DNA of 6,986 bases from a virus (lineage: Duplodnaviria; Heunggongvirae; Uroviricota; Caudoviricetes). This document shows, one piece after another, positions 1-6,986 of this stretch (positions are counted from its first letter, which is position 1; the number at the start of each line of letters is the position of its first letter). The stretch lies in IMG/VR virus record IMGVR_UViG_2690316285_000008, positions 1 to 6,986 of that record. One strand, given 5' to 3'. The position numbers were made by a program, and so were the translations under genes. The notes below the pieces were generated by a model, which was given only the letters and a program-made list of their open reading frames with translations, was not told the origin of the DNA and searched no databases.

Positions 1-437
1 GCCCATACCGGCGGCTTACCATCCGGATACTGGATCTTGTTTGTAAAAACCTCGCTTTCAATAAATTTTTTTCCGTGACAGCAGGGGCACTGTTTTTTGC
101 TCGCCGCGCTACGGGCATAATCTTCAAACGCATACGAAGCCATAATACGCATCACTGCCGGTTTTATTTCTGCCGGGAGTTTTCTTAACGCCGCCACGCG
201 ATCACACCGACTGAGTGCATATTCTGTCAGCAATTCTGTTGCCCGCTCTCTGTCATTCATACTAATGCCCATTTTCCCAAGGAACGCAGAAACCCCCATC
301 TCAGCCCGATTCTGTGTCATGCCCTGCGCGGCCATCACATCAGTGATACTCAGCGCATCTTTCGACGTTGAGGCCGATGCATCAGTCAGGCCGGGGGATT
401 TTGGGGAGTAGTATTTCGGTAAATCTTCCAGTTTCAT
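1..437 (-). CDS. Late-gene antitermination protein Q (lambda Q family), N-terminal ~145 codons; 3' end runs off the window start
   Basis: ATG at 437..435 overlaps the rusA stop (ATGA at 437..434) and the frame stays open to position 1. Translation begins MKLEDLPKYYSPKSPGLTDASASTSKDALSITDVMAAQGMTQNR, which parallels the lambda Q N-terminus as I recall it (MRLESVAKFHSPKSP...DVMAAMGMAQ). A CPCCHG zinc-finger-like motif follows near the window edge. Not in the ORF track because it is truncated. Confidence 0.75.
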   Translation of the reverse strand, partial: MKLEDLPKYYSPKSPGLTDASASTSKDALSITDVMAAQGMTQNRAEMGVSAFLGKMGISMNDRERATELLTEYALSRCDRVAALRKLPAEIKPAVMRIMASYAFEDYARSAASKKQCPCCHGKKFIESEVFTNKIQYPDGKPPVW

Positions 438-814
438 TTTTTGACCTGCTCTTCATGCATTATGGGGTAAATCTTCACCCCCAGACGTCCACCAGATACT
501 GGCTGACCACGAACGATATTGATTTCATCAAACTGCTCATCGTCCATTAGCAACCCCGCATGCGTCAGCGCATCCAGCGGCGCTTTCAGAATATTGTCCA
601 GGTCACGGCGGCGCTTATCCGGTGGTTCTGCAATAATTTTTATTGCCAACCTTCCGGACAGGCTTAATTTCAGCCGCTGCTGGCGAACAATAAGCGCCAC
701 TGCCCGGCGATAACGCTCCCCGGCTTTTGATACAAAATATGTGCTGCCACGACGACGCCAGTAAGTGTTCACCGTCGGCGGGTAAGGTAAAACAAATTCT
801 ATGCGCTCGGTCAT
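434..814 (-). CDS. rusA: RusA Holliday junction resolvase (crossover junction endodeoxyribonuclease)
   Basis: 126-aa ORF with ATG at 814..812. Carries the RusA hallmarks PYPPTVNTYWR and PPDKRRRDLDNILKAPLDAL. Sits immediately 5' of Q, as in lambdoid nin regions. Confidence 0.9.
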   Translation of the reverse strand: MTERIEFVLPYPPTVNTYWRRRGSTYFVSKAGERYRRAVALIVRQQRLKLSLSGRLAIKIIAEPPDKRRRDLDNILKAPLDALTHAGLLMDDEQFDEINIVRGQPVSGGRLGVKIYPIMHEEQVKK

Positions 815-1873
815 TTATGCTTTCCACTTCAGAACACCCGAATTTCTCGCGTGCATTAAAAAACGAATCAGCAACAACAGCTGACTGCCGTGTTTCTCTT
901 CAAAATCTTTTACTCCGGCATGTAGTTCGTTACGGCATTTACGGCATAACGGAATAACAAACAAATCATCAGCCTTTGTTCCCATCCCTCCCAGTCCATG
1001 ACCAATGATGTGATGCGGATCATCTGCCTGATTGCCACACGTCATGCATTTCTGCGTTTTTACCCAGCGCGTGTATACAGGCATCTCTTCCCGTTGTGAT
1101 TTCTGGCGCTGGAGATACTGAGCCGGTGACTCCGGATCAACGGCAATGCTGACCACCGTCTTTTCCTGTGGTGGGTTCTGTTGCTGGTGGACGTGAGGCA
1201 GTAACGCAATATTTTTTGTGCGCTGCTTCAGTATGCTGGTGGCTGTCTGCTCTCCCGGTATGATGTCGCTTTCACTGTACACAGAGCGAATTTTTTCCGC
1301 ACGCAACCCCAGCGAACGACGTAATACCGCTTCCGGTAGCGCGTCCGCCACCTGATTGCGGACCGCCCACCAGGATAATTCAGCCAGAGATAATTCACGC
1401 TCCTGCGTACCGCTTATTGCGTGACCGATGACGTCAATCATCCATGCTGACAGGTTTTGATGAGCAAGTTGCTCGAGTGATTCGGATGTCTGGTCACGCA
1501 GCTGGTTGTCGCAGTGCCAGCACAACACCATTGCGCCGGTACCATAACGGTGAATGACGGTTTCGCTGTGATGATAATCGCCGTGTGGCCACTGGCAGGA
1601 TTTAATATGGCGCAACAGCCAGTCAGACAATGCACCAGCACCACCAGCAGCACGAATCACCCGTGCGTTACTGAAAAACGGCAGCAATGTTTTGTCTTCC
1701 ACCAGCGGCTGGCGAGCGGCAGGAACGACCCCGGACGGCAGATTACGCATGCTTTTTGGTTCCGGCTCCACCAGTATTCTGCCGTTATGGAATGCTGACA
1801 TTGATTCACGGCCTGGCTTAACGATAACCAGACCGAGTTCCGGTACCAGAACAGGTCGAAGTAATACCCGCAC
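815..1873 (-). CDS. YdfU-like (DUF968-type) prophage protein with a C-terminal HNH-like zinc-finger motif
   Basis: 352-aa ORF whose stop TAA (817..815) directly abuts the rusA ATG. C-terminal region has CMTCG...DDPHHIIGHGLGG...VIPLCRKCRNELH (CxxC / HH / CxxC spacing typical of HNH nucleases). The listed start at 1873 is GTG; an in-frame ATG lies at 1801..1799. Size and position match ydfU of Qin. Confidence 0.7.
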   Translation of the reverse strand: MRVLLRPVLVPELGLVIVKPGRESMSAFHNGRILVEPEPKSMRNLPSGVVPAARQPLVEDKTLLPFFSNARVIRAAGGAGALSDWLLRHIKSCQWPHGDYHHSETVIHRYGTGAMVLCWHCDNQLRDQTSESLEQLAHQNLSAWMIDVIGHAISGTQERELSLAELSWWAVRNQVADALPEAVLRRSLGLRAEKIRSVYSESDIIPGEQTATSILKQRTKNIALLPHVHQQQNPPQEKTVVSIAVDPESPAQYLQRQKSQREEMPVYTRWVKTQKCMTCGNQADDPHHIIGHGLGGMGTKADDLFVIPLCRKCRNELHAGVKDFEEKHGSQLLLLIRFLMHARNSGVLKWKA

Positions 1874-1874
1874 A

Positions 1875-2153
1875 TTACCTCCAGATCCGTTGCTGGAATG
1901 TGCGGGACGGACGCGTTGGCCGTTCGGAGTAAGGGAGCCTGACGGAGATTATCCAGTGACGGTAGTCGAGGCTAAGGGCTTTTTTAACCTCGCATCCGCG
2001 CCTGCGGTAACACTGAATGAGCCATTCGGCCTGTTCTTCAGTGCATGGGGGATGCTGGTACCAATCAGATTTAAATGCGTGAGAGCGCCGCCCGTGCCTG
2101 CTGGCAAAGACGGCTGAATTATCAGAATTGTGTAGTCTGGAATTTTGCGCCAT
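1875..2153 (-). CDS. Hypothetical prophage protein (92 aa)
   Basis: ATG at 2153..2151 preceded by GGAG with a 7-nt spacer. Stop TAA (1877..1875) overlaps an ATG at 1875..1873 (TAATG). No recognisable family. Confidence 0.45.
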   Translation of the reverse strand: MAQNSRLHNSDNSAVFASRHGRRSHAFKSDWYQHPPCTEEQAEWLIQCYRRRGCEVKKALSLDYRHWIISVRLPYSERPTRPSRTFQQRIWR

Positions 2154-2219
2154 CGGCTTTCTCCGGTGGCACAGTGTTACTCAACAGGGGTTCAGCCCTG
2201 CGCTGAATTGTAGATGAAT

Positions 2220-2480
2220 TCACTCATCTTCAAAAGCAGAAAAACCAGCCTTAATCCCAGCTTCTTTCAGAGACGGCAACGATGTGACAAATTCATTTGC
2301 ACGCGAAATAAAACCATCCGTCACAAGCCCATCCACAAAATGAATTAACGCAGCTCCACTCTTCCTTTGTTGAGACTGTAAACATTTAATACGGCAGTGG
2401 CTGACAATAGCGCCATTCTCAACGCGCACAGTATAGAGGCCATCTTCACTAAAAATTTCACGTAATTCTTCGATTTTCAT
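2220..2480 (-). CDS. Hypothetical prophage protein (86 aa from the ATG; the track shows 87 aa from an upstream TTG)
   Basis: ATG at 2480..2478 preceded by GGAAGGA with an 8-nt spacer. The track start at 2483 is TTG. Positionally equivalent to rem of Qin, but the sequence is not recognised. Confidence 0.5.
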   Translation of the reverse strand: MKIEELREIFSEDGLYTVRVENGAIVSHCRIKCLQSQQRKSGAALIHFVDGLVTDGFISRANEFVTSLPSLKEAGIKAGFSAFEDE

Positions 2481-2555
2481 CAACAGAATCCTTCCAGATA
2501 AATAGCACTCCCCTGTTCGGGGTCCATCCCTCTTCTCCCTGCGCGCTACTTAAGT

Positions 2556-2592
2556 ATTTTTGATTCTATTCCGGCACCATCTAAAACTTCAA
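2556..2592 (-). promoter_or_regulatory. Candidate sigma70 promoter for the 86-aa gene and downstream operon
   Basis: On the minus strand TTGAAG (2592..2587), 18-nt spacer, TAGAAT (2568..2563), lying between the hok-1 terminator and the 86-aa gene. Motif match only. Confidence 0.25.
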
Positions 2593-2606
2593 ACGCGTTG
2601 AAAATA

Positions 2607-2631
2607 AAAACAAAAACCCGCCGAAGCGGGT
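2607..2631 (-). terminator. Intrinsic terminator at the 3' end of hok-1 mRNA
   Basis: Minus-strand hairpin CCCGC-UUCG-GCGGG (plus 2617..2630) followed by a U5 run (plus-strand A-run 2612..2616). Confidence 0.5.
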
Positions 2632-2700
2632 TAAGTGTGGGTGCATTGAGGATGCCTGACCCATCAGAGGTGGCGAGGGATTTCTCCCCCGCCTGGTCTC

Positions 2701-2856
2701 TTACTCCTCAGGTTCGTAAGCTGTGAAGACAGCGACCTCCGTCTGGCCGGTTCGAATTCGTACCTCGCAGAGGTCTTTCCTCGTTACCAGTGCCGTCACT
2801 ATGACGGTTAAACAGATGACGATCAGGGCGATTAACATCGCCTTTTGCTGCTTCAT
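2701..2856 (-). CDS. hokD: Hok-family type I toxin (51 aa), hok-1
   Basis: Translation MKQQKAMLIALIVICLTVIVTALVTRKDLCEVRIRTGQTEVAVFTAYEPEE from ATG 2856..2854, preceded by AGGAG with a 9-nt spacer. Matches my recollection of HokD/RelF and the Hok fold (TM helix then conserved Cys). It is the C-terminal part of the 70-aa ORF in the track. Confidence 0.85.
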   Translation of the reverse strand: MKQQKAMLIALIVICLTVIVTALVTRKDLCEVRIRTGQTEVAVFTAYEPEE

Positions 2857-2913
2857 AGCCTGCTTCTCCTTGCCTTTCGGCACGTAAGAGGCTAACCTAG
2901 ATTTGCCGTTCAT
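2701..2913 (-). CDS. Mok-like reading frame (70 aa), an in-frame N-terminal extension of hok-1
   Basis: ATG at 2913..2911 with GAGG 8 nt upstream; frame is continuous with hok (MNGKSRLASYVPKGKEKQA-MKQQ...), as I recall for chromosomal mok/hok pairs. Confidence 0.5.
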   Translation of the reverse strand: MNGKSRLASYVPKGKEKQAMKQQKAMLIALIVICLTVIVTALVTRKDLCEVRIRTGQTEVAVFTAYEPEE

Positions 2914-2978
2914 AGATTGAGCCTCAGATTAATGTTAAGCGTCTTGCCGGACGCGTAATGTTAACTGGGGCTTTTCTC
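2904..2978 (+). ncRNA. Candidate Sok antisense RNA for hok-1
   Basis: Plus-strand promoter-like TTGCCT (2870..2875), 17-nt spacer, TAACCT (2893..2898). Long imperfect hairpin with outer stem GCCUCAG (2921..2927) and CUGGGGC (2965..2971), followed by UUUUCUC (2972..2978). Antisense to the mok SD and start. Boundaries are approximate. Confidence 0.4.
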
Positions 2979-3026
2979 TATCTGCCTTTTGGTGTTCATG
3001 CCTGAGACAGATAGCCTCAAGCACCC

Positions 3027-3060
3027 GCTGCAATTCTACTTAACTCTCCTTTTCCCGCAA
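3027..3060 (-). promoter_or_regulatory. Candidate hok-1 mRNA promoter
   Basis: Minus strand TTGCGG (3060..3055), 16-nt spacer, TAGAAT (3038..3033), predicted start near 3026. The predicted 5' end GGUGCUUGAGG (plus 3015..3025) is complementary, with a 1-nt bulge, to a 3' element at plus 2640..2651, like the hok tac/fbi pairing. Confidence 0.4.
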
Positions 3061-3067
3061 ACCGTTT

Positions 3068-3151
3068 TTATCCCCAGCGGCAAATCGAATACACCACCAG
3101 CGCCACCGCCATCGCAATTCCTACCGTTGTTAATGCTTCAGGCCAGGTCAT
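3068..3151 (-). CDS. Small hydrophobic peptide, 27 aa ([27 protein letters not shown]), copy 1
   Basis: ATG at 3151..3149 overlaps the 114-aa gene stop (ATGA). GGAGGA lies 9 nt upstream. A second copy at 4601..4684 differs by 4 synonymous and 1 conservative change. Below the ORF-track length cut-off. Confidence 0.55.
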
Positions 3152-3492
3152 CGTAAAATATCCTCCACGCTTATCAGTCCGTTCCGCTCCAGATAACTCA
3201 TCGCCTTATCCGGTAATTTGCAGTCTGGCTTCGCTTTTCTCAGTTGCCAGGTTAACTGCTTTACCAGCATGGTTAACTCATCGACCAGACGCTGATATCC
3301 CACTGGTTTGTATTCATGCAATTTACCGGCTGGCTCTGCTGCCAGCGATACCAGTGCGATTTCCAGAACAGCAATATCCATCTTATATGTGCGGATGATG
3401 TCATGGTCGATTGTGCCCGGTATGCACAGTCTCTGTGCTTCAATAGTCTCCTCTGCGTGAGCTATTAACTGCTCTCTGGTAAAAGTCGTCAT
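3148..3492 (-). CDS. Hypothetical prophage protein, 114 aa (MTT-start paralog family)
   Basis: ATG at 3492..3490 overlaps the 55-aa gene stop (ATGA) inside a conserved 48-bp junction. N-terminus MTTFTREQL and a VSLAAEP segment are shared with the 55-aa and 221-aa proteins. Confidence 0.65.
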
Positions 3493-3897
3493 GCCGTAGC
3501 CCCTTCTTGATATTTTTCAAACCAGAACACAACCGGCTCTGCTTCCAGCGATGCCAGCGCAATCCGTGCCAGTTCCATTTGTTCACCACGGGTAAGCCCG
3601 TTTTCAAGCGGGTTTTTAATGAACAATTCAATACGTTCTTTGGTAATAGTGGTCATGTGTTACTCCTTAACCCGCAGTGCTTTCAACTGATGAGGGGAAC
3701 AAAATCTTTTCATCAAACCCTGCATTCATATCATGAACAGCAACACACCAATCCATCGACGAACGATTATCAAGAGCCTCCATGATTTCATCCATGCGGC
3801 GTAGGTCATACAGGTAAATGCTTTTATCGCCAATGGTGTAAAAGCCAATTTTTTTCGGTGATGGATGAGGTGTACTGGCAATAGCGGACACTACCAT
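3274..3897. repeat. Direct repeat U, copy 1 (identical to 6363..6986)
   Basis: Visual alignment shows identity over 623 bp at a constant offset of 3089 bp. The left boundary falls inside the 114-aa gene; the right boundary is limited by the window end. Confidence 0.85.
3489..3656 (-). CDS. Hypothetical small protein, 55 aa ([55 protein letters not shown])
   Basis: ATG at 3656..3654 with GGAG 6 nt upstream. Ends with the same 16 residues as the HNH protein because both 3' ends lie in the conserved junction. Not in the ORF track (under 60 aa). Identical copy at 6578..6745. Confidence 0.55.
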
Positions 3898-3936
3898 TTG
3901 TTCTTTTTTTAAGCAGCCATCTGATGAATCGGGCAT
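3667..3936 (-). CDS. Hypothetical prophage protein (89 aa from ATG 3936; 76 aa if ATG 3897 is used)
   Basis: Protein-like translation (...KKIGFYTIGDKSIYLYDLRRMDEIMEALDNRSSMDWCVAVHDMNAGFDEKILFPSS). Neither ATG has a clear SD. The track's 133-aa version starts at a GTG inside the hok-2 3' UTR and is probably over-extended. Confidence 0.45.
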   Translation of the reverse strand: MPDSSDGCLKKEQMVVSAIASTPHPSPKKIGFYTIGDKSIYLYDLRRMDEIMEALDNRSSMDWCVAVHDMNAGFDEKILFPSSVESTAG

Positions 3937-3978
3937 TATCTGAACATAAAACACTATCAATAAGTTGGAGTCATTACC

Positions 3979-4000
3979 AAAAAAACCGCCGAAACGGGTT
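3979..4000 (-). terminator. Weak terminator-like element at the 3' end of hok-2 mRNA
   Basis: Degenerate counterpart of the hok-1 terminator: short stem followed by a U7 run (plus-strand A-run 3979..3985). Confidence 0.3.
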
Positions 4001-4070
4001 AAGTGCGGGTGCGTTGAGGATGCCTGACACATCAAAGGTGGCGGGAGATTACTCTCCCGCCTGGTCACTC

Positions 4071-4226
4071 TTACTCTCTAGATTCGTAGTCTACGAAAAC
4101 AGCGACCTCCGTCTGGCCGATTCGGATTCGTACCTCGCAGAGGTCTTTCCTCGTTACCAGTGCCGTCACTATGACGGTTAAACAGATGACGATCAGGGCG
4201 ATTAACATCGCCTTTTGCTGCTTCAT
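4071..4226 (-). CDS. Hok-family type I toxin paralog (51 aa), hok-2
   Basis: Translation MKQQKAMLIALIVICLTVIVTALVTRKDLCEVRIRIGQTEVAVFVDYESRE from ATG 4226..4224. Identical to hok-1 through residue 34, diverged in the C-terminal tail. Confidence 0.8.
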   Translation of the reverse strand: MKQQKAMLIALIVICLTVIVTALVTRKDLCEVRIRIGQTEVAVFVDYESRE

Positions 4227-4283
4227 AGCCTGCTTCTCCTTGCCTTTCGGCACGTAAGAGGCTAACCTACATTTGTGAGACAT
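4071..4283 (-). CDS. Mok-like reading frame (70 aa), an in-frame extension of hok-2
   Basis: ATG at 4283..4281; N-terminus MSHKCRLASYVPKGKEKQA then hok in frame. Confidence 0.45.
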   Translation of the reverse strand: MSHKCRLASYVPKGKEKQAMKQQKAMLIALIVICLTVIVTALVTRKDLCEVRIRIGQTEVAVFVDYESRE

Positions 4284-4348
4284 AGATTGGGCCTCAGATT
4301 AATGTTAAGCGTCTTGCAGGACGCGTAATGTTAACTGGGGCTTTTCTC
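4274..4348 (+). ncRNA. Candidate Sok antisense RNA for hok-2
   Basis: Same architecture as sok-1, offset by 1370 bp: hairpin GCCUCAG (4291..4297) / CUGGGGC (4335..4341) followed by UUUUCUC (4342..4348). The 5' single-stranded tail differs from sok-1 at several positions. Confidence 0.4.
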
Positions 4349-4564
4349 TGTCTGCCTTACAGTGACATACCCGAGGCAGACAGCCTCAAGCACCCGCAGC
4401 AATCTTACCGACACCGATAAGAAAACGCTATTTTTTATTGCCAGCACCATCTATCCAGGCTAGTTTATCTGCGTCAGAACGGCGCAATGCGCTCGCCTGA
4501 GATACGTTTACTTGCCATGGTAACAACAGGTAACGGCAATTGCTGTTTCTGTTTTGTTTCCTTC

Positions 4565-4595
4565 AAAAACCCCGGACCATCAATCCGGGGTTTTT
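4565..4595. terminator. Bidirectional intrinsic terminator
   Basis: Perfect 6-bp GC stem CCCCGG (4570..4575) / CCGGGG (4585..4590) with a 9-nt loop, flanked by A5 (4565..4569) and T5 (4591..4595). Lies just 3' of the 27-aa gene copy 2. Confidence 0.65.
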
Positions 4596-4600
4596 GTTTG

Positions 4601-4684
4601 TTAACCCCAACGGCAAATCGAATACACCACCAGCGCCACCGCCATCGCAATTCCTACCGTGGTGAATGCCTCAGGCCAGGTCAT
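4601..4684 (-). CDS. Small hydrophobic peptide, 27 aa ([27 protein letters not shown]), copy 2
   Basis: ATG at 4684..4682 overlaps the DUF551-like gene stop (ATGA). AGGAGG lies 7 nt upstream. Followed by the terminator at 4565..4595. Confidence 0.55.
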   Translation of the reverse strand: MTWPEAFTTVGIAMAVALVVYSICRWG

Positions 4685-5046
4685 TGATTCACCTCCTGCG
4701 GTGGTTCCGGTAGCGGCATCCAGTGAGTTGAGCTCTCTACTTCAACGCCGTCTTTGTCCACAAAAGCCATCTTATTCCCGCCACGAGTGGGGCAAAAAAC
4801 CTTATCCCAGGAACCGGGGAATACATTCCCGAGATCATCGAGAAGAATCACATCGCAATATTCAGCAGGAACTGCATCACTACAGCTTATCCAGCCAGCC
4901 GGAGCTACCGGAGAGTTGCCAGCCTTACGCATGGCCATTTCCACGATTTCAACCATATCTCCTGGTGGAATTTTACAAAGTTGCCCAATACATTTCTGCT
5001 GCCTGGCATATTCGAGAATGTGCTCCAGTTTGGTTCGATTAATCAT
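4681..5046 (-). CDS. DUF551-like phage protein (121 aa)
   Basis: ATG at 5046..5044 overlaps the 221-aa gene stop (TAATG); GGGAG lies 7 nt upstream. C-terminal THWMPLPEPP and internal Trp/Gly pattern match my recollection of the DUF551 family. Confidence 0.65.
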   Translation of the reverse strand: MINRTKLEHILEYARQQKCIGQLCKIPPGDMVEIVEMAMRKAGNSPVAPAGWISCSDAVPAEYCDVILLDDLGNVFPGSWDKVFCPTRGGNKMAFVDKDGVEVESSTHWMPLPEPPQEVNQ

Positions 5047-5711
5047 TATTTATCTCCCTTAAGCATGGCAGCGCGGCAGGCGTTCCAGCCATCAACATAA
5101 TCAAACGTATTACTATCGTTTGGCCCGATTTCATCCGGCACTATCGGCTCTGGTTGGATAGTGACGTTGGCAAAGGCAGCACGCAAACCGGTTTTAATTT
5201 CTTCGATTTCATCAGAGCCAAGCGATGAATCTGACAGTGCGTGATGGAATGCGTAAGCCATGTCGTCGTTTACTGCAACCGGCACTGCCGGCGCTGCGTA
5301 AAGCGGTGTTATATCTGCCCGAAAATCACATGCTTTATGCAGTCGTACCCAACACTCAACTTCCGCTTTGTCAAAATATATAGCAGTGAACGTATTAGAT
5401 TCCTGGTCAACTTGAGTAAACGTCACCTTCCACGCTACAGCTACGGCTTTCCATCCATCAGGTTGTCGCATTCGCGGGGCAGCATAAAGCTCATGCATTC
5501 CATCAGGCAGCGAGTGACCCACATACTCACCGAACCCGTCAATACACATGCCCCCATCTTCAACAATGCATTCCGCTACAGGCTCTGCTTCCAGTGATGC
5601 CAGAGCGATAAGCGCCAGTTCACGAATTTCACCGCCGTCTATATCGTCAATATCATCGCGGCCAGAAATGTTAGCCAGCCATTGCAGTCGCTCTTTGGTA
5701 ATAGTGGTCAT
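5046..5711 (-). CDS. Hypothetical prophage protein, 221 aa (MTT-start paralog family)
   Basis: ATG at 5711..5709 overlaps the HNH stop (ATGA) in the conserved junction, with AAGGGG 7 nt upstream. N-terminus MTTITKERL and [12 protein letters not shown] are shared with the 55-aa protein. LYAAP occurs twice internally. Confidence 0.7.
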   Translation of the reverse strand: MTTITKERLQWLANISGRDDIDDIDGGEIRELALIALASLEAEPVAECIVEDGGMCIDGFGEYVGHSLPDGMHELYAAPRMRQPDGWKAVAVAWKVTFTQVDQESNTFTAIYFDKAEVECWVRLHKACDFRADITPLYAAPAVPVAVNDDMAYAFHHALSDSSLGSDEIEEIKTGLRAAFANVTIQPEPIVPDEIGPNDSNTFDYVDGWNACRAAMLKGDK

Positions 5712-6073
5712 GCCGTAGCCCCTTCTTGATATTTTTCAAACCAGAACACAACCGGGTCAGATTTCATTTCAACCAATCCCATACGAACCAGCGCTTTGCC
5801 TTTCCCGGACGCAAGGAATTCACGACGACCATCACTGATAATTCGTCGATAATCTTCCAGGCTACTGCAATGCTTGTGCAGATTGCATGGGTGGCATGCT
5901 GGTACCATGTTGGATATATCGTCACGTTCCTGGTGAAGCATATTTCCATCAAAACGAATGACCGGTTTTACATGGTCTGCATGCCACTTTTCGCCAAGTT
6001 CGCAGCCGCAATAAGCGCAGCGACCACCGAACTTCATGCGCAGTTCTGCACGTTGTTTTTTCGTCAGTGCCAT
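5708..6073 (-). CDS. HNH endonuclease (121 aa)
   Basis: ATG at 6073..6071 with AAGGAAAG 6 nt upstream. Motifs CAYCGC, HADHVKP, N...PACHPCNLHK fit the HNH zinc-finger nuclease pattern. The track's 151-aa version starts at a TTG. Confidence 0.85.
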   Translation of the reverse strand: MALTKKQRAELRMKFGGRCAYCGCELGEKWHADHVKPVIRFDGNMLHQERDDISNMVPACHPCNLHKHCSSLEDYRRIISDGRREFLASGKGKALVRMGLVEMKSDPVVFWFEKYQEGATA

Positions 6074-6074
6074 A

Positions 6075-6293
6075 TCAGCTTTCCTTATACGGATTAATTT
6101 TATTGTGCAGTGTGTTGAATGACGCCCATACCACGTCGTTATACAATTCAATAACTGGCTCAATTATTTTTCCGATTATCCAGACAAAAATTAGCGGGGA
6201 TATCGGTGTCATCAACACGATAAACAGAATGAGAAACAGGAATTCTGTTGTTCTACTCTTTCGCGGATATTTTTTTCTAAATAATGTAACCAT
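6075..6293 (-). CDS. Candidate small membrane protein (72 aa) in an AT-rich segment
   Basis: ATG at 6293..6291; Lys/Arg-rich N-terminus then a hydrophobic stretch FLFLILFIVLMTPISPLIFVWIIGKII. Stop is 1 nt before the HNH start. GC content of 6090..6300 is clearly lower than the surroundings, so chance hydrophobicity is possible. Confidence 0.4.
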   Translation of the reverse strand: MVTLFRKKYPRKSRTTEFLFLILFIVLMTPISPLIFVWIIGKIIEPVIELYNDVVWASFNTLHNKINPYKES

Positions 6294-6296
6294 TCA

Positions 6297-6581
6297 TTAC
6301 CGCCCTTTCGAGCGGTCTCCTGATGATTTGAGGGTGCAGAAATCCCTCCGGTTAAGGATTAATAACTCATCGACCAGACGCTGATATCCCACTGGTTTGT
6401 ATTCATGCAATTTACCGGCTGGCTCTGCTGCCAGCGATACCAGTGCGATTTCCAGAACAGCAATATCCATCTTATATGTGCGGATGATGTCATGGTCGAT
6501 TGTGCCCGGTATGCACAGTCTCTGTGCTTCAATAGTCTCCTCTGCGTGAGCTATTAACTGCTCTCTGGTAAAAGTCGTCAT
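6297..6581 (-). pseudogene. Truncated/chimeric copy of the 114-aa gene
   Basis: First 73 codons are identical to 3148..3492; identity ends at the repeat boundary (6363) and the frame runs 21 more codons into unrelated AT-rich DNA before TAA at 6299..6297. Confidence 0.5.
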
Positions 6582-6745
6582 GCCGTAGCCCCTTCTTGAT
6601 ATTTTTCAAACCAGAACACAACCGGCTCTGCTTCCAGCGATGCCAGCGCAATCCGTGCCAGTTCCATTTGTTCACCACGGGTAAGCCCGTTTTCAAGCGG
6701 GTTTTTAATGAACAATTCAATACGTTCTTTGGTAATAGTGGTCAT
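6578..6745 (-). CDS. Hypothetical small protein, 55 aa, identical second copy
   Basis: Lies in the exact repeat (offset 3089 bp from 3489..3656), with the same RBS and ATGA overlap. Confidence 0.5.
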
Positions 6746-6755
6746 GTGTTACTCC

Positions 6756-6986
6756 TTAACCCGCAGTGCTTTCAACTGATGAGGGGAACAAAATCTTTTC
6801 ATCAAACCCTGCATTCATATCATGAACAGCAACACACCAATCCATCGACGAACGATTATCAAGAGCCTCCATGATTTCATCCATGCGGCGTAGGTCATAC
6901 AGGTAAATGCTTTTATCGCCAATGGTGTAAAAGCCAATTTTTTTCGGTGATGGATGAGGTGTACTGGCAATAGCGGACACTACCAT
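6756..6986 (-). CDS. Second copy of the 89/76-aa hypothetical protein; 5' end may lie beyond the window
   Basis: Identical to 3667..3897. The window ends exactly on the ATG equivalent to 3897, so the equivalent of the 3936 start would be outside the window. Confidence 0.45.
   Translation of the reverse strand: MVVSAIASTPHPSPKKIGFYTIGDKSIYLYDLRRMDEIMEALDNRSSMDWCVAVHDMNAGFDEKILFPSSVESTAG

Follow-up and report, generated by a model that had tools for sequence, protein, structure and literature searches.

Two hok/mok/sok loci of the hokD/hokW subtype lie side by side in a phage-derived sequence, probably through IS-associated joining of two prophage regions

Results

Two hok-type loci on the minus strand

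The DNA analysed, hereafter the window, is a stretch of 6,986 nucleotides from a Caudoviricetes record (IMG/VR IMGVR_UViG_2690316285_000008). Its minus strand carries two hok/mok/sok loci, copy A (2612-3040) and copy B (3980-4407), which are 90% identical across 426 nt with a start-to-start distance of 1370 bp. Both span the full Rfam model RF01794 (sok/hok-leader, positions 1-157) on the hok-mRNA strand, at 112.4 bits (E 1e-25) for copy A and 118.1 bits (E 3e-27) for copy B, the gathering score being 59; the structured hok mRNA leader is thus present in both. The toxin is represented in each copy by a 51-aa ORF, i.e. a small hydrophobic protein of about 50 aa, and the Pfam profile HOK_GEF (PF01848, cut-off 22 bits) is fully covered, with 81.6 bits for copy A and 76 bits for copy B. 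In the two copies a mok frame begins upstream of hok, overlaps it and shares its stop codon; translational coupling is predicted. Two hok-type loci at these places are far above the level of chance, and the spacing, both family matches and the intact mok and hok ORFs bear out the original prediction of two hok/mok/sok loci 1.37 kb apart. The window also gave Rfam matches far below their gathering scores, driven by terminator hairpins, which were discarded: isrK (25.7 bits, 2611-2692), and STnc30, PsrR1 and others (4494-4602).

Copy A is canonical in every element:

2612..3026, minus strand: predicted full-length hokA mRNA, ~415 nt, from the 5' tac to the terminator (RF01794 match 2851-3026; fold with 5'-3' pairing; 99.8% identity to another locus, L106)
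2701..2913, minus strand: mokA ORF, 70 aa (ORF list; HOK_GEF match)
2701..2856, minus strand: hokA ORF nested in mokA, 51 aa, of a type identical to K-12 HokD (ORF list)
3033..3060, minus strand: candidate hokA promoter, TTGCGG, 16 nt, TAGAAT, 6 nt upstream of the 5' G (homology; under the threshold of the consensus scan)
2639..2651, minus strand: fbi element, pairing with tac at 3015-3026 (fold and homologue alignment)
2615..2632, minus strand: intrinsic hokA terminator, 7-bp stem, UUCG loop and U-tract (fold and scan)

The corresponding features of copy B are:

3980..4395, minus strand: predicted full-length hokB mRNA, ~416 nt (RF01794 match 4221-4395; 92.7% identity to hokW-sokW)
4071..4283, minus strand: mokB ORF, 70 aa (ORF list; Pfam match)
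4071..4226, minus strand: hokB ORF nested in mokB, 51 aa (ORF list)
4402..4407, minus strand: TAAGAT, the sole promoter-like element upstream of hokB, with no -35 (comparison of upstream regions)
4007..4019, minus strand: fbi element, pairing with tac at 4384-4395 (MFE fold)
~3983-4000, minus strand: weak hokB terminator, 4-bp stem (MFE fold)

As many as 18190 collection blocks contain the exact mokA/hokA protein; that of copy B is found in Shigella-type genomes, the exact MokB being recorded in 1411 collection blocks.

Folding of the hok mRNAs and the Sok RNAs

In the MFE folds of both full-length hok RNAs (z-score -7.1 for copy A and -5.9 for copy B), the 5' element GGGUGCUUGAGG pairs over 12 bp with CCUCAA(U/C)GCACCC near the 3' end. 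This tac/fbi pairing is the consensus and is unchanged across 57 unique homologues; as it is invariant, it is backed by conservation rather than by covariation. Compensatory changes are seen at two other pairs, 15-47 (AU/GC) and 342-356 (GC/AU), where copies A and B represent the alternative states. The complementary 5'/3' element pair which had been proposed for each copy is therefore real.

On the opposite strand, both copies display the sequence features of a Sok gene, i.e. a cis-antisense RNA with its own promoter, a free 5' tail, a terminator hairpin and complementarity to the mok initiation region:

2905..2975, plus strand: predicted SokA antisense RNA, 71 nt; promoter TTGCCT (2870-2875), 17 nt, TAACCT (2893-2898) (mapped from annotated 933W sokW)
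4275..4345, plus strand: predicted SokB antisense RNA, 71 nt; promoter TTGCCT (4240-4245), 17 nt, TAACCT (4263-4268) (mapped from annotated 933W sokW)

The antisense RNAs had first been placed at 2904-2978 and 4274-4348, within 1-3 nt of these sokW-mapped limits. Promoter, start and hairpin are identical to those of the annotated 933W sokW, the tail excepted. Folding of the predicted transcripts, which had been suggested as a check, gave the tac/fbi lock in both hok mRNAs, and for SokA (z-score -5.2) and SokB a long hairpin preceded by a free 5' tail and followed by a U-rich stretch.

SokA and SokB differ only at positions 2-6, 16 and 44. The predicted duplexes between the 14-nt Sok 5' tail and its target reach -20 to -21 kcal/mol for the cognate pairs versus -7 to -8 kcal/mol for the non-cognate ones. 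Across 57 unique prophage loci, variability peaks in the 5-nt block that corresponds to mok codons 2-3, and hence to the Sok 5' tail; this block has at least seven alleles, reassorted against the rest of the locus.

Promoter and terminator of copy B

A consensus promoter scan reported zero hok or sok promoters in copies A and B, so that our statements on promoters are drawn from homology. On this ground the proposal that both loci have their own promoters holds for both Sok genes and for hokA, whose candidate promoter sequence is also found upstream of 933W hokW and of most homologues, but not for hokB. The -35 (TTGCGG/TTGGCG) and -10 (TAGAAT) conserved in nearly all relatives, among them the functional hokW, were not found upstream of hokB: the homology of copy B to other loci ends inside the TAAGAT hexamer, and the region upstream has been replaced. 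Because this region is unlike that of nearly all homologues, the existence of a hok promoter proper to copy B is doubtful, and this part of the original prediction is not confirmed.

Copy B has thus kept its leader, Sok gene, reading frames and fbi, while its promoter region is replaced and its terminator stem weakened. The missing -35 and -10 and the 4-bp stem imply that expression of hokB from its own signals may be low or nil. Taken further, copy A could be the sole working module, copy B being a decaying or transcriptionally dependent relic that still produces Sok. The break of homology within the -10 hexamer fits this idea, as do the terminator stem of 4 bp versus 7 bp in copy A, the IS1 end that adjoins the hokB terminator U-tract (to be read in this case as an IS1 insertion there) and a bidirectional terminator upstream of copy B, which would isolate it. 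Pedersen & Gerdes (1999), moreover, are reported to have regarded the K-12 loci hokA, hokC and hokE as inactivated by IS elements in their vicinity. We nevertheless regard such a relic as rather unlikely: copy B is intact in all its reading frames, in its leader, tac/fbi and Sok gene, and its structure is maintained through compensatory changes; the promoter variant is kept at 99.5-99.96% identity in many Shigella-type genomes, and MokB is widely on record; and 933W hokW, likewise devoid of the canonical terminator sequence, is still functional.

Relationship to known hok loci

The closest described system is hokW-mokW-sokW of the Stx2 phages 933W and Sakai Sp5; copy B aligns with it over 96% of its own length, at 92.7% identity. 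It has the same architecture as the window copies, the same tac and fbi, and an identical Sok hairpin, Sok length (71 nt) and Sok promoter (TTGCCT-17-TAACCT). [quoted passage not shown]

K-12 hokD (relF), in the relBE-hokD operon of Qin, occupies the same position as copy A, upstream of rem-ydfU-Q, and shares with it the same type of 51-aa Hok, the 3' UTR, the fbi element and the terminator. Its homology to the window, however, reaches only ~20 nt beyond the hok ATG on the upstream side, as far as the abutting relE: relBE replaces there the leader, the start of mok, the Sok gene and tac, all of which the window copies keep. As stated in the original prediction, K-12 hokD is thus devoid of mok/sok. 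The absence of relBE from the window was likewise correctly noted; at the nucleotide level, only ydfU-rem-hokD of K-12 Qin is similar, and none of the tested ORFs matches the RelB or RelE families, so that copies A and B, with their mok/sok leader, are not members of a relBEF operon. On the other hand, the intact mok/sok had been presented as notable by comparison with K-12, and this does not stand: intact mok/sok is the norm for hokD/hokW-type loci in lambdoid prophages, K-12 being the truncated exception, and a 92.7% identical homologue was already an established toxin-antitoxin system. The window loci belong to this hokD/hokW subtype of the type I family, common in lambdoid prophages.

The likeness to hok/sok (parB) of plasmid R1 is more remote: the Hok/Gef toxin, the overlapping mok, a Sok lying across the mok start and the 5'/3' fold-back lock are shared, but the R1 system is plasmid-borne and the window loci prophage-borne or chromosomal, and the sequences are divergent. 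HokW itself is 44% identical to R1 Hok (Takada et al., PMC8621323). Chromosomal hok loci tested earlier are cited in bioRxiv 10.1101/2025.08.07.668861 as giving no post-segregational killing.

With two hok within 2 kb on one replicon, the window contains a hok "islet". Of all Hok, 10% lie in islets, and for the chromosomal hok of Escherichia the share is 13.5% (bioRxiv 10.1101/2025.08.07.668861); those described by Escalera-Maurer et al. (bioRxiv 2026) also have two hok of the same cluster less than 2 kb apart on Escherichia/Shigella-type chromosomes. Two modules in one prophage segment had been judged unusual; such pairs are in fact already published, but among phage records two-hok islets are indeed rare (111 places in 110 records).

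The window matches two prophage regions

Between the two copies lie remnants of IS elements, and they delimit segments of different affiliation:

1..3927, minus strand: segment matching a Qin-like, ompW-linked prophage (IS600-X'-hokA-rem-DUF968-RusA-Q) at 99.8% identity, the sole difference being a 250-nt indel at 2143-2392
3274..3897, minus strand: block X', with a truncated phrog_1714 gene, a 55-aa ORF and the 5' part of a 114-aa ORF; 100% identical to 6363-6986
3866..3927, minus strand: final 62 nt of IS600 (nt 1203-1264) with its right inverted repeat (sequence comparison)
3928..3978, minus strand: 51-nt IS1 terminal fragment (nt 1-51, insB-proximal end), 100% identical to IS1A (sequence comparison)
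3928..6362, minus strand: segment with a DUF4014 gene, HNH, a 221-aa ORF, DUF551, a 27-aa ORF, a terminator, hokB and the IS1 end; contiguous in Shigella-type prophages at 99.5-99.96% identity
6363..6986, minus strand: block X, the upstream copy of the repeat, which extends to the window end; the IS600 tail (6955-6986) again precedes it

The IS1 fragment adjoins the hokB U-tract by its outer end, and a full IS1 occupies the same site in several other loci (L008, L009, L089-L098). Window 3928-6362 is 99.5-99.96% identical to loci in which a full IS1 comes after hokB; among the chromosomes bearing them is CP022455, the reference for a Shigella outbreak cluster in an S. sonnei study. The IS600 tail truncates the downstream phrog_1714 gene. 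Segment 1-3927 is syntenic with K-12 Qin, and in GCA_040188945.1 its counterpart, 99.8% identical, reads IS1-462 nt-IS600-X'-hokA-rem-DUF968-RusA-Q. This genome carries the hokB locus as well, in the same orientation but ~124 kb away; the two halves of the window are thus 99.8-99.9% identical to two distant loci of one Shigella-like chromosome. The view of one undisturbed prophage segment must be given up, since the copies are joined via IS1 and IS600 remnants and the halves match different prophage regions. Blocks X and X' form a perfect repeat of 624 bp, which suggests a further tandem duplication.

Discussion

The two hokD/hokW-subtype loci were in all likelihood brought together by the IS-associated joining of two prophage regions, rather than by a local duplication of hok. 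The hok copies are 90% identical, against 100% for the flanking 624-bp block. In the order and number of steps that we infer, hokB with an IS1 at its 3' end would have been joined to an IS600-interrupted, Qin/PPompW-like module carrying hokA, probably beginning with an IS1 x IS1 exchange; a 2.4-kb deletion would have followed, leaving 51 bp of IS1 and 62 bp of IS600, and a tandem duplication of 3089 bp would have come last. Simple transposition at 3927/3928 was rejected, the joint showing neither an element terminus nor microhomology.

Neither the window nor its 3700-4110 stretch found a place with at least 80% coverage in 5426 complete E. coli genomes; the exact junction patterns (3927/3928 and 6362/6363) had no match in GTDB representative genomes, IMG/VR or JGI metagenomes, and the three junction-spanning ORFs no exact match in the gene-position index. 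Since both junctions were found nowhere else in these searches, the physical linkage of the two loci relies on this one sequence. An assembly or scaffolding chimera would account for such unique junctions, the loci being really ~124 kb apart as in the reference genomes; that the two halves correspond, at 99.8% identity or above, to separate loci of a single reference chromosome, that the perfect repeat reaches the window end and that the only other two-hok contig found (L010) has an N gap would agree with it. However, the joints are at internal, non-repeated positions (IS1 nt 51/IS600 nt 1203 for the one, the interior of the 114-aa ORF/an intergenic site for the other) and no sequence is common to both sides at either of them, whereas repeat-collapse misassembly does not yield such joints. 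Besides, Shigella genomes are known for IS-mediated rearrangements. We therefore hold a chimera to be improbable. As for the tandem duplication and later divergence of one hok locus, the origin usually put forward for islets, which are reported to be mostly duplicated in place (bioRxiv 10.1101/2025.08.07.668861), it would suit the common Hok cluster of the copies and the small upstream 27-aa ORF, also duplicated at 93% identity, but we reject it as very improbable: the copies have diverged by a tenth beside an identical block, each is at least 99.8% identical to a distinct locus elsewhere, IS1 and IS600 remnants lie exactly at the joint, the upstream regions differ, and polymorphisms of the C-terminus and 3' UTR group copy A with the K-12 hokD type and copy B with the hokW type.

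By homology with hok/sok of plasmid R1 and with hokW-sokW, each locus is expected to work as follows. A stable hok mRNA of ~415 nt would be produced, kept untranslatable and unreactive to Sok by the pairing of 5' tac with 3' fbi, until the lock is opened by slow trimming at the 3' end. Sok, an unstable RNA of 71 nt read from the other strand over the mok start, would pair with the mok translation-initiation region and stop the translation of mok, hence that of the coupled hok, the duplex being then cleaved. Should Sok synthesis end, by prophage induction or loss or by transcription shut-off, Hok would be made and would depolarise the inner membrane. The neutralisation of Hok toxicity by Sok, demonstrated for the homologue hokW-sokW (PMC8621323), may be extended to copies A and B by analogy.

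The predicted tail:target energies raise the possibility that the two neighbouring modules are functionally insulated from each other, to which we would give somewhat less than an even chance. Cross-talk between hok/sok systems is not covered in the TA cross-interaction review or in the Pas sRNA preprint.

Lambdoid prophages with intact hok/sok loci have been published before, as have hok islets within 2 kb, and both window loci are ordinary, already catalogued prophage loci whose exact proteins occur in thousands of assemblies; in this well-studied family, the importance of the finding beyond annotation is small. The window nonetheless shows the form of the intact ancestor of K-12 hokD. It also provides a concrete route to hok islets, in which two separately evolved loci are fused, with IS1 and IS600 remnants as scars, instead of one locus being duplicated in place. 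Finally, the pair lends itself to a natural test of the role of the hypervariable Sok 5' tail, namely whether it determines antitoxin specificity between near-identical modules that share a cell. If this is true, the Sok tail would be a diversifying determinant of specificity, and co-resident prophages could keep addiction or lysis-timing modules that do not neutralise each other.

Two hok/mok/sok loci in a nin-like region

All genes of the window are on the minus strand, in the nin-like/late-regulatory region of a lambdoid prophage. Along transcription, from high to low coordinates, come a truncated phrog_1714 gene, a 55-aa ORF, a 94-aa ORF and a DUF4014 gene; then an HNH gene, a 221-aa ORF, a DUF551 gene, a 27-aa hydrophobic ORF and hok copy B; then a second phrog_1714 + 55-aa + 114-aa block, a second 27-aa ORF and hok copy A; and last rem, a 92-aa ORF, DUF968/YdfU, RusA and the start of the antiterminator Q gene. 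The two hok copies are 90% identical over 426 nt, with 1370 nt from start to start.

Features of the hok loci and of the sequence between them
2612-3040, minus strand, hok copy A
2905-2975, plus strand, SokA, predicted by mapping sokW of phage 933W onto the window
3866-3927, IS600 fragment, last 62 nt including the inverted repeat
3928-3978, IS1 fragment, the first 51 nt at the insB-proximal end, with 100% identity
3980-4407, minus strand, hok copy B
4275-4345, plus strand, SokB, predicted by mapping sokW of phage 933W onto the window

The original prediction of two real hok/mok/sok loci is borne out by every sequence-level feature tested, namely the Rfam and Pfam matches, the nested frames and the fold-back pairing. 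Rfam RF01794 (“sok antitoxin”) matches copies A and B over the full model, with 112 and 118 bits (E 1e-25 and 3e-27) for a gathering score of 59. It aligns to the hok-mRNA (minus) strand, at 2851-3026 and 4221-4395, and ends at the hok AUG, so that the match marks the hok leader and not the Sok-encoding strand. Each 70-aa mok frame holds a 51-aa hok frame (Pfam HOK_GEF, 82 bits for A and 76 for B). Near the Hok C-terminus both hok frames contain UACG, in which a G comes after the TAC Tyr codon (2716-2719 and 4086-4089, minus strand); UACG motifs have been reported as targets of A-to-I editing by TadA, which recodes Tyr to Cys in hok mRNAs.

Folding the predicted 415-nt RNAs alone, as had been proposed, recovered the 5'/3' pairing in both copies, with z-scores of -7.1 (A) and -5.9 (B): the first 12 nt (GGGUGCUUGAGG) pair with CCUCAA(U/C)GCACCC, about 25 nt ahead of the terminator. 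In an alignment of 57 unique loci of the subtype, drawn from IMG/VR, phage records and genomes, every locus has this pairing without variation. The consensus structure of the alignment contains 114 pairs, very few cells of which are broken, and compensatory double changes occur at pairs 15-47 (AU/GC) and 342-356 (GC/AU), where copies A and B hold alternative states. The conserved pairing and the compensatory changes indicate that both copies were kept under structural constraint. A weak isrK-like Rfam match (2611-2692, minus strand; 25.7 bits, gathering 50) over the hok 3' UTR hairpin and terminator is probably driven by hairpins only.

The record of phage 933W annotates mokW, hokW and a 71-nt sokW, and copy B is 92.7% identical to the hokW locus of 933W and of VT2-Sakai/Sp5. 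The Sok positions mapped from this annotation differ by 1–3 nt from those first proposed. The upstream 60 nt of SokA, SokB and sokW, with TTGCCT, 17 nt and TAACCT, are identical up to 5–6 nt before the start. The three RNAs also share one fold, a long imperfect hairpin in which the 5' tail stays free and the 3' end is rich in U. For the Sp5 hokW-sokW pair, Takada et al. (PMC8621323) demonstrated the toxicity of Hok and its neutralisation by sokW, which needs the -10 element of sokW; the lysogen contained native transcripts of both hokW and sokW, upon induction sokW was lost and HokW appeared, and the pair brought a two-fold gain in phage release. By homology, these data would be the best available guide to the working of the window loci.

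Promoters and terminators

Nearly all relatives share GTTAAGTAGAAT, then 6 nt, then the 5' G, with a correctly spaced -35 of TTGCGG or TTGGCG. Copy A has a candidate hok promoter of this kind (TTGCGG, 16 nt, TAGAAT). In copy B the homology to other loci ends within the -10 hexamer: TAAGAT remains, with unrelated sequence upstream. Both loci had been credited with their own promoters; because of this break, homology supports one for copy A hok and for both sok genes only, and not for copy B hok. The copy B terminator has lost one G, leaving a 4-bp stem versus 7 bp in copy A, and its U-tract adjoins the IS1 end.

The unrelated sequence upstream of copy B holds a structured stretch (4470-4606, plus strand, z -3.9), which closes with a strong hairpin of 13 bp at 4564-4596. 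This bidirectional terminator, with U-runs on either strand, separates the 27-aa ORF from hokB and has no counterpart upstream of copy A. The stretch could in addition be a small plus-strand RNA; a weak TTGCCA-17-TAGTTT is seen near 4438-4466, and the stretch matches no Rfam family at threshold. The 27-aa ORF itself (3068-3151 and 4601-4684, minus strand) is immediately upstream of each hok locus, with 93% DNA identity between copies and no match in the PHROG comparison; it may be a small membrane protein travelling with this hok type.

Relation to hokD of K-12

The order in K-12 Qin is relB-relE-hokD-rem-ydfU-Q, and the window is syntenic from hokA on. Similarity does not begin until about 20 nt ahead of the hok ATG, which agrees with the earlier statement that hokD has no mok/sok region of its own; hokD is therefore a truncated form and copy A the intact form at the same position. 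The intact form is the commoner one: the exact MokA protein occurs in 18190 collection blocks, typically flanked by replication or nin genes and by rem/DUF968/RusA/Q.

Origin of the pair

Both IS fragments follow the hokB terminator and precede a phrog_1714 homologue that is short of about 20 residues at its N-terminus. The two halves of the window match separate places in reference genomes. Positions 3928-6362 have counterparts of 99.5–99.96% identity in IS-rich chromosomes (about 4.8 Mb), in which a complete IS1 follows hokB; one of them, CP022455, served as reference for a Shigella outbreak cluster in an S. sonnei study. Positions 1-3927 match, at 99.8% identity, a prophage region linked to ompW that runs IS1, 462 nt, IS600, X' (the truncated phrog_1714 block), 55 aa, 114 aa, hokA, rem, DUF968, RusA, Q. 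One assembly, GCA_040188945.1, has the two regions in like orientation at a distance of about 124 kb, and its two IS1 copies there are also in direct orientation. In the simplest history there would be three steps: an unequal IS1 x IS1 exchange putting hokB-IS1 beside IS600-X'-hokA, a deletion of 2381 bp (IS1 nt 52 through IS600 nt 1202) making junction 3927|3928, and a further event making junction 6362|6363.

At junction 6362|6363 the first 70-odd codons of the 114-aa ORF (3148-3492) are joined to the intergenic start of the DUF4014-HNH segment. The resulting 94-aa ORF (6297-6581, minus strand), with an unrelated tail read from intergenic sequence, has no record in the exact protein look-up. 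Besides, 3274-3897 and 6363-6986 form a 624-bp repeat, 100% identical, that reaches the window end. Junction and repeat together fit a tandem duplication of a 3089-bp unit (3274-6362), in which case a further hokB copy would lie just past the window end.

Neither junction was found elsewhere, among complete E. coli genomes, GTDB representatives, IMG/VR, JGI metagenomes or in exact ORF look-ups, which would suit a chimeric assembly; but the joints fall at non-repeated internal positions, unlike repeat-collapse artefacts. The IS-scarred rearrangement is the likelier explanation of the adjacency, and a chimera is less likely. An IMG/VR scaffold (L010), which has an N gap, also carries two hok loci with IS600 and the X' block between them.

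The DUF4014-HNH-DUF551-hokB segment (window 3928-6362) lies between same-orientation IS1 copies in L008, L093, L094 and L096, a composite-transposon-like layout carrying a hok/sok module in several Shigella-type genomes. One reference locus (L106), otherwise 99.8% identical, lacks the 250 nt at 2143-2392, between the 92-aa ORF and rem. Otherwise different ORFs share short conserved stretches where genes meet (3471-3547, 5690-5766 and 6560-6636; 3532-3575, 5578-5621 and 6621-6664), with N-termini beginning MTTITKER... and C-termini likewise alike; they look like linker sequences where lambdoid nin-region modules recombine.

How unusual is the pair, and what it may mean

Matches of hokB type occur at 111 places in 110 phage records, so the double locus is rare there, and of about 100 loci fetched, L010 alone had a second hok locus. 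One of the phage loci, 93% identical to copy B, is in PP818812.1 (“Actinobacillus phage vB_Apl-pPE4”), whose label gives Actinobacillus pleuropneumoniae as the host; genes typical of an E. coli lambdoid nin region accompany it, and the host assignment looks doubtful. Paired hok genes are nevertheless already known from published “islets” of 2–6 copies within 2 kb, which account for 10% of Hok genes overall and for 13.5% of those on Escherichia chromosomes in a survey that also found hok to be enriched in prophages (bioRxiv 10.1101/2025.08.07.668861). Unlike an in-place duplication, the pair described here is a fusion of two diverged loci. The loci are present as first described, and the first interpretation is supported in part. 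Both belong to the hok/sok family as ordinary members that had been catalogued before.

SokA and SokB differ at positions 2-6, 16 and 44 only. In the 57-locus alignment, variability over the whole locus peaks in the five columns just past the mok AUG, which are complementary to Sok nt 2-6 (none of 5000 shuffles reached the observed variability for a 5-column window), with at least 7 alleles joined to differing flanks. For the 14-nt Sok tail on its target, the predicted duplex energies are -20 to -22 kcal/mol when the two are cognate and -4 to -9 kcal/mol when they are not, while predicted full-length duplexes remain strong (about -113 kcal/mol or stronger). In the R1 paradigm, the 5' tail of Sok makes the first contact with the target. 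If this rule applies here, neighbouring modules could, hypothetically, be partly insulated from each other.
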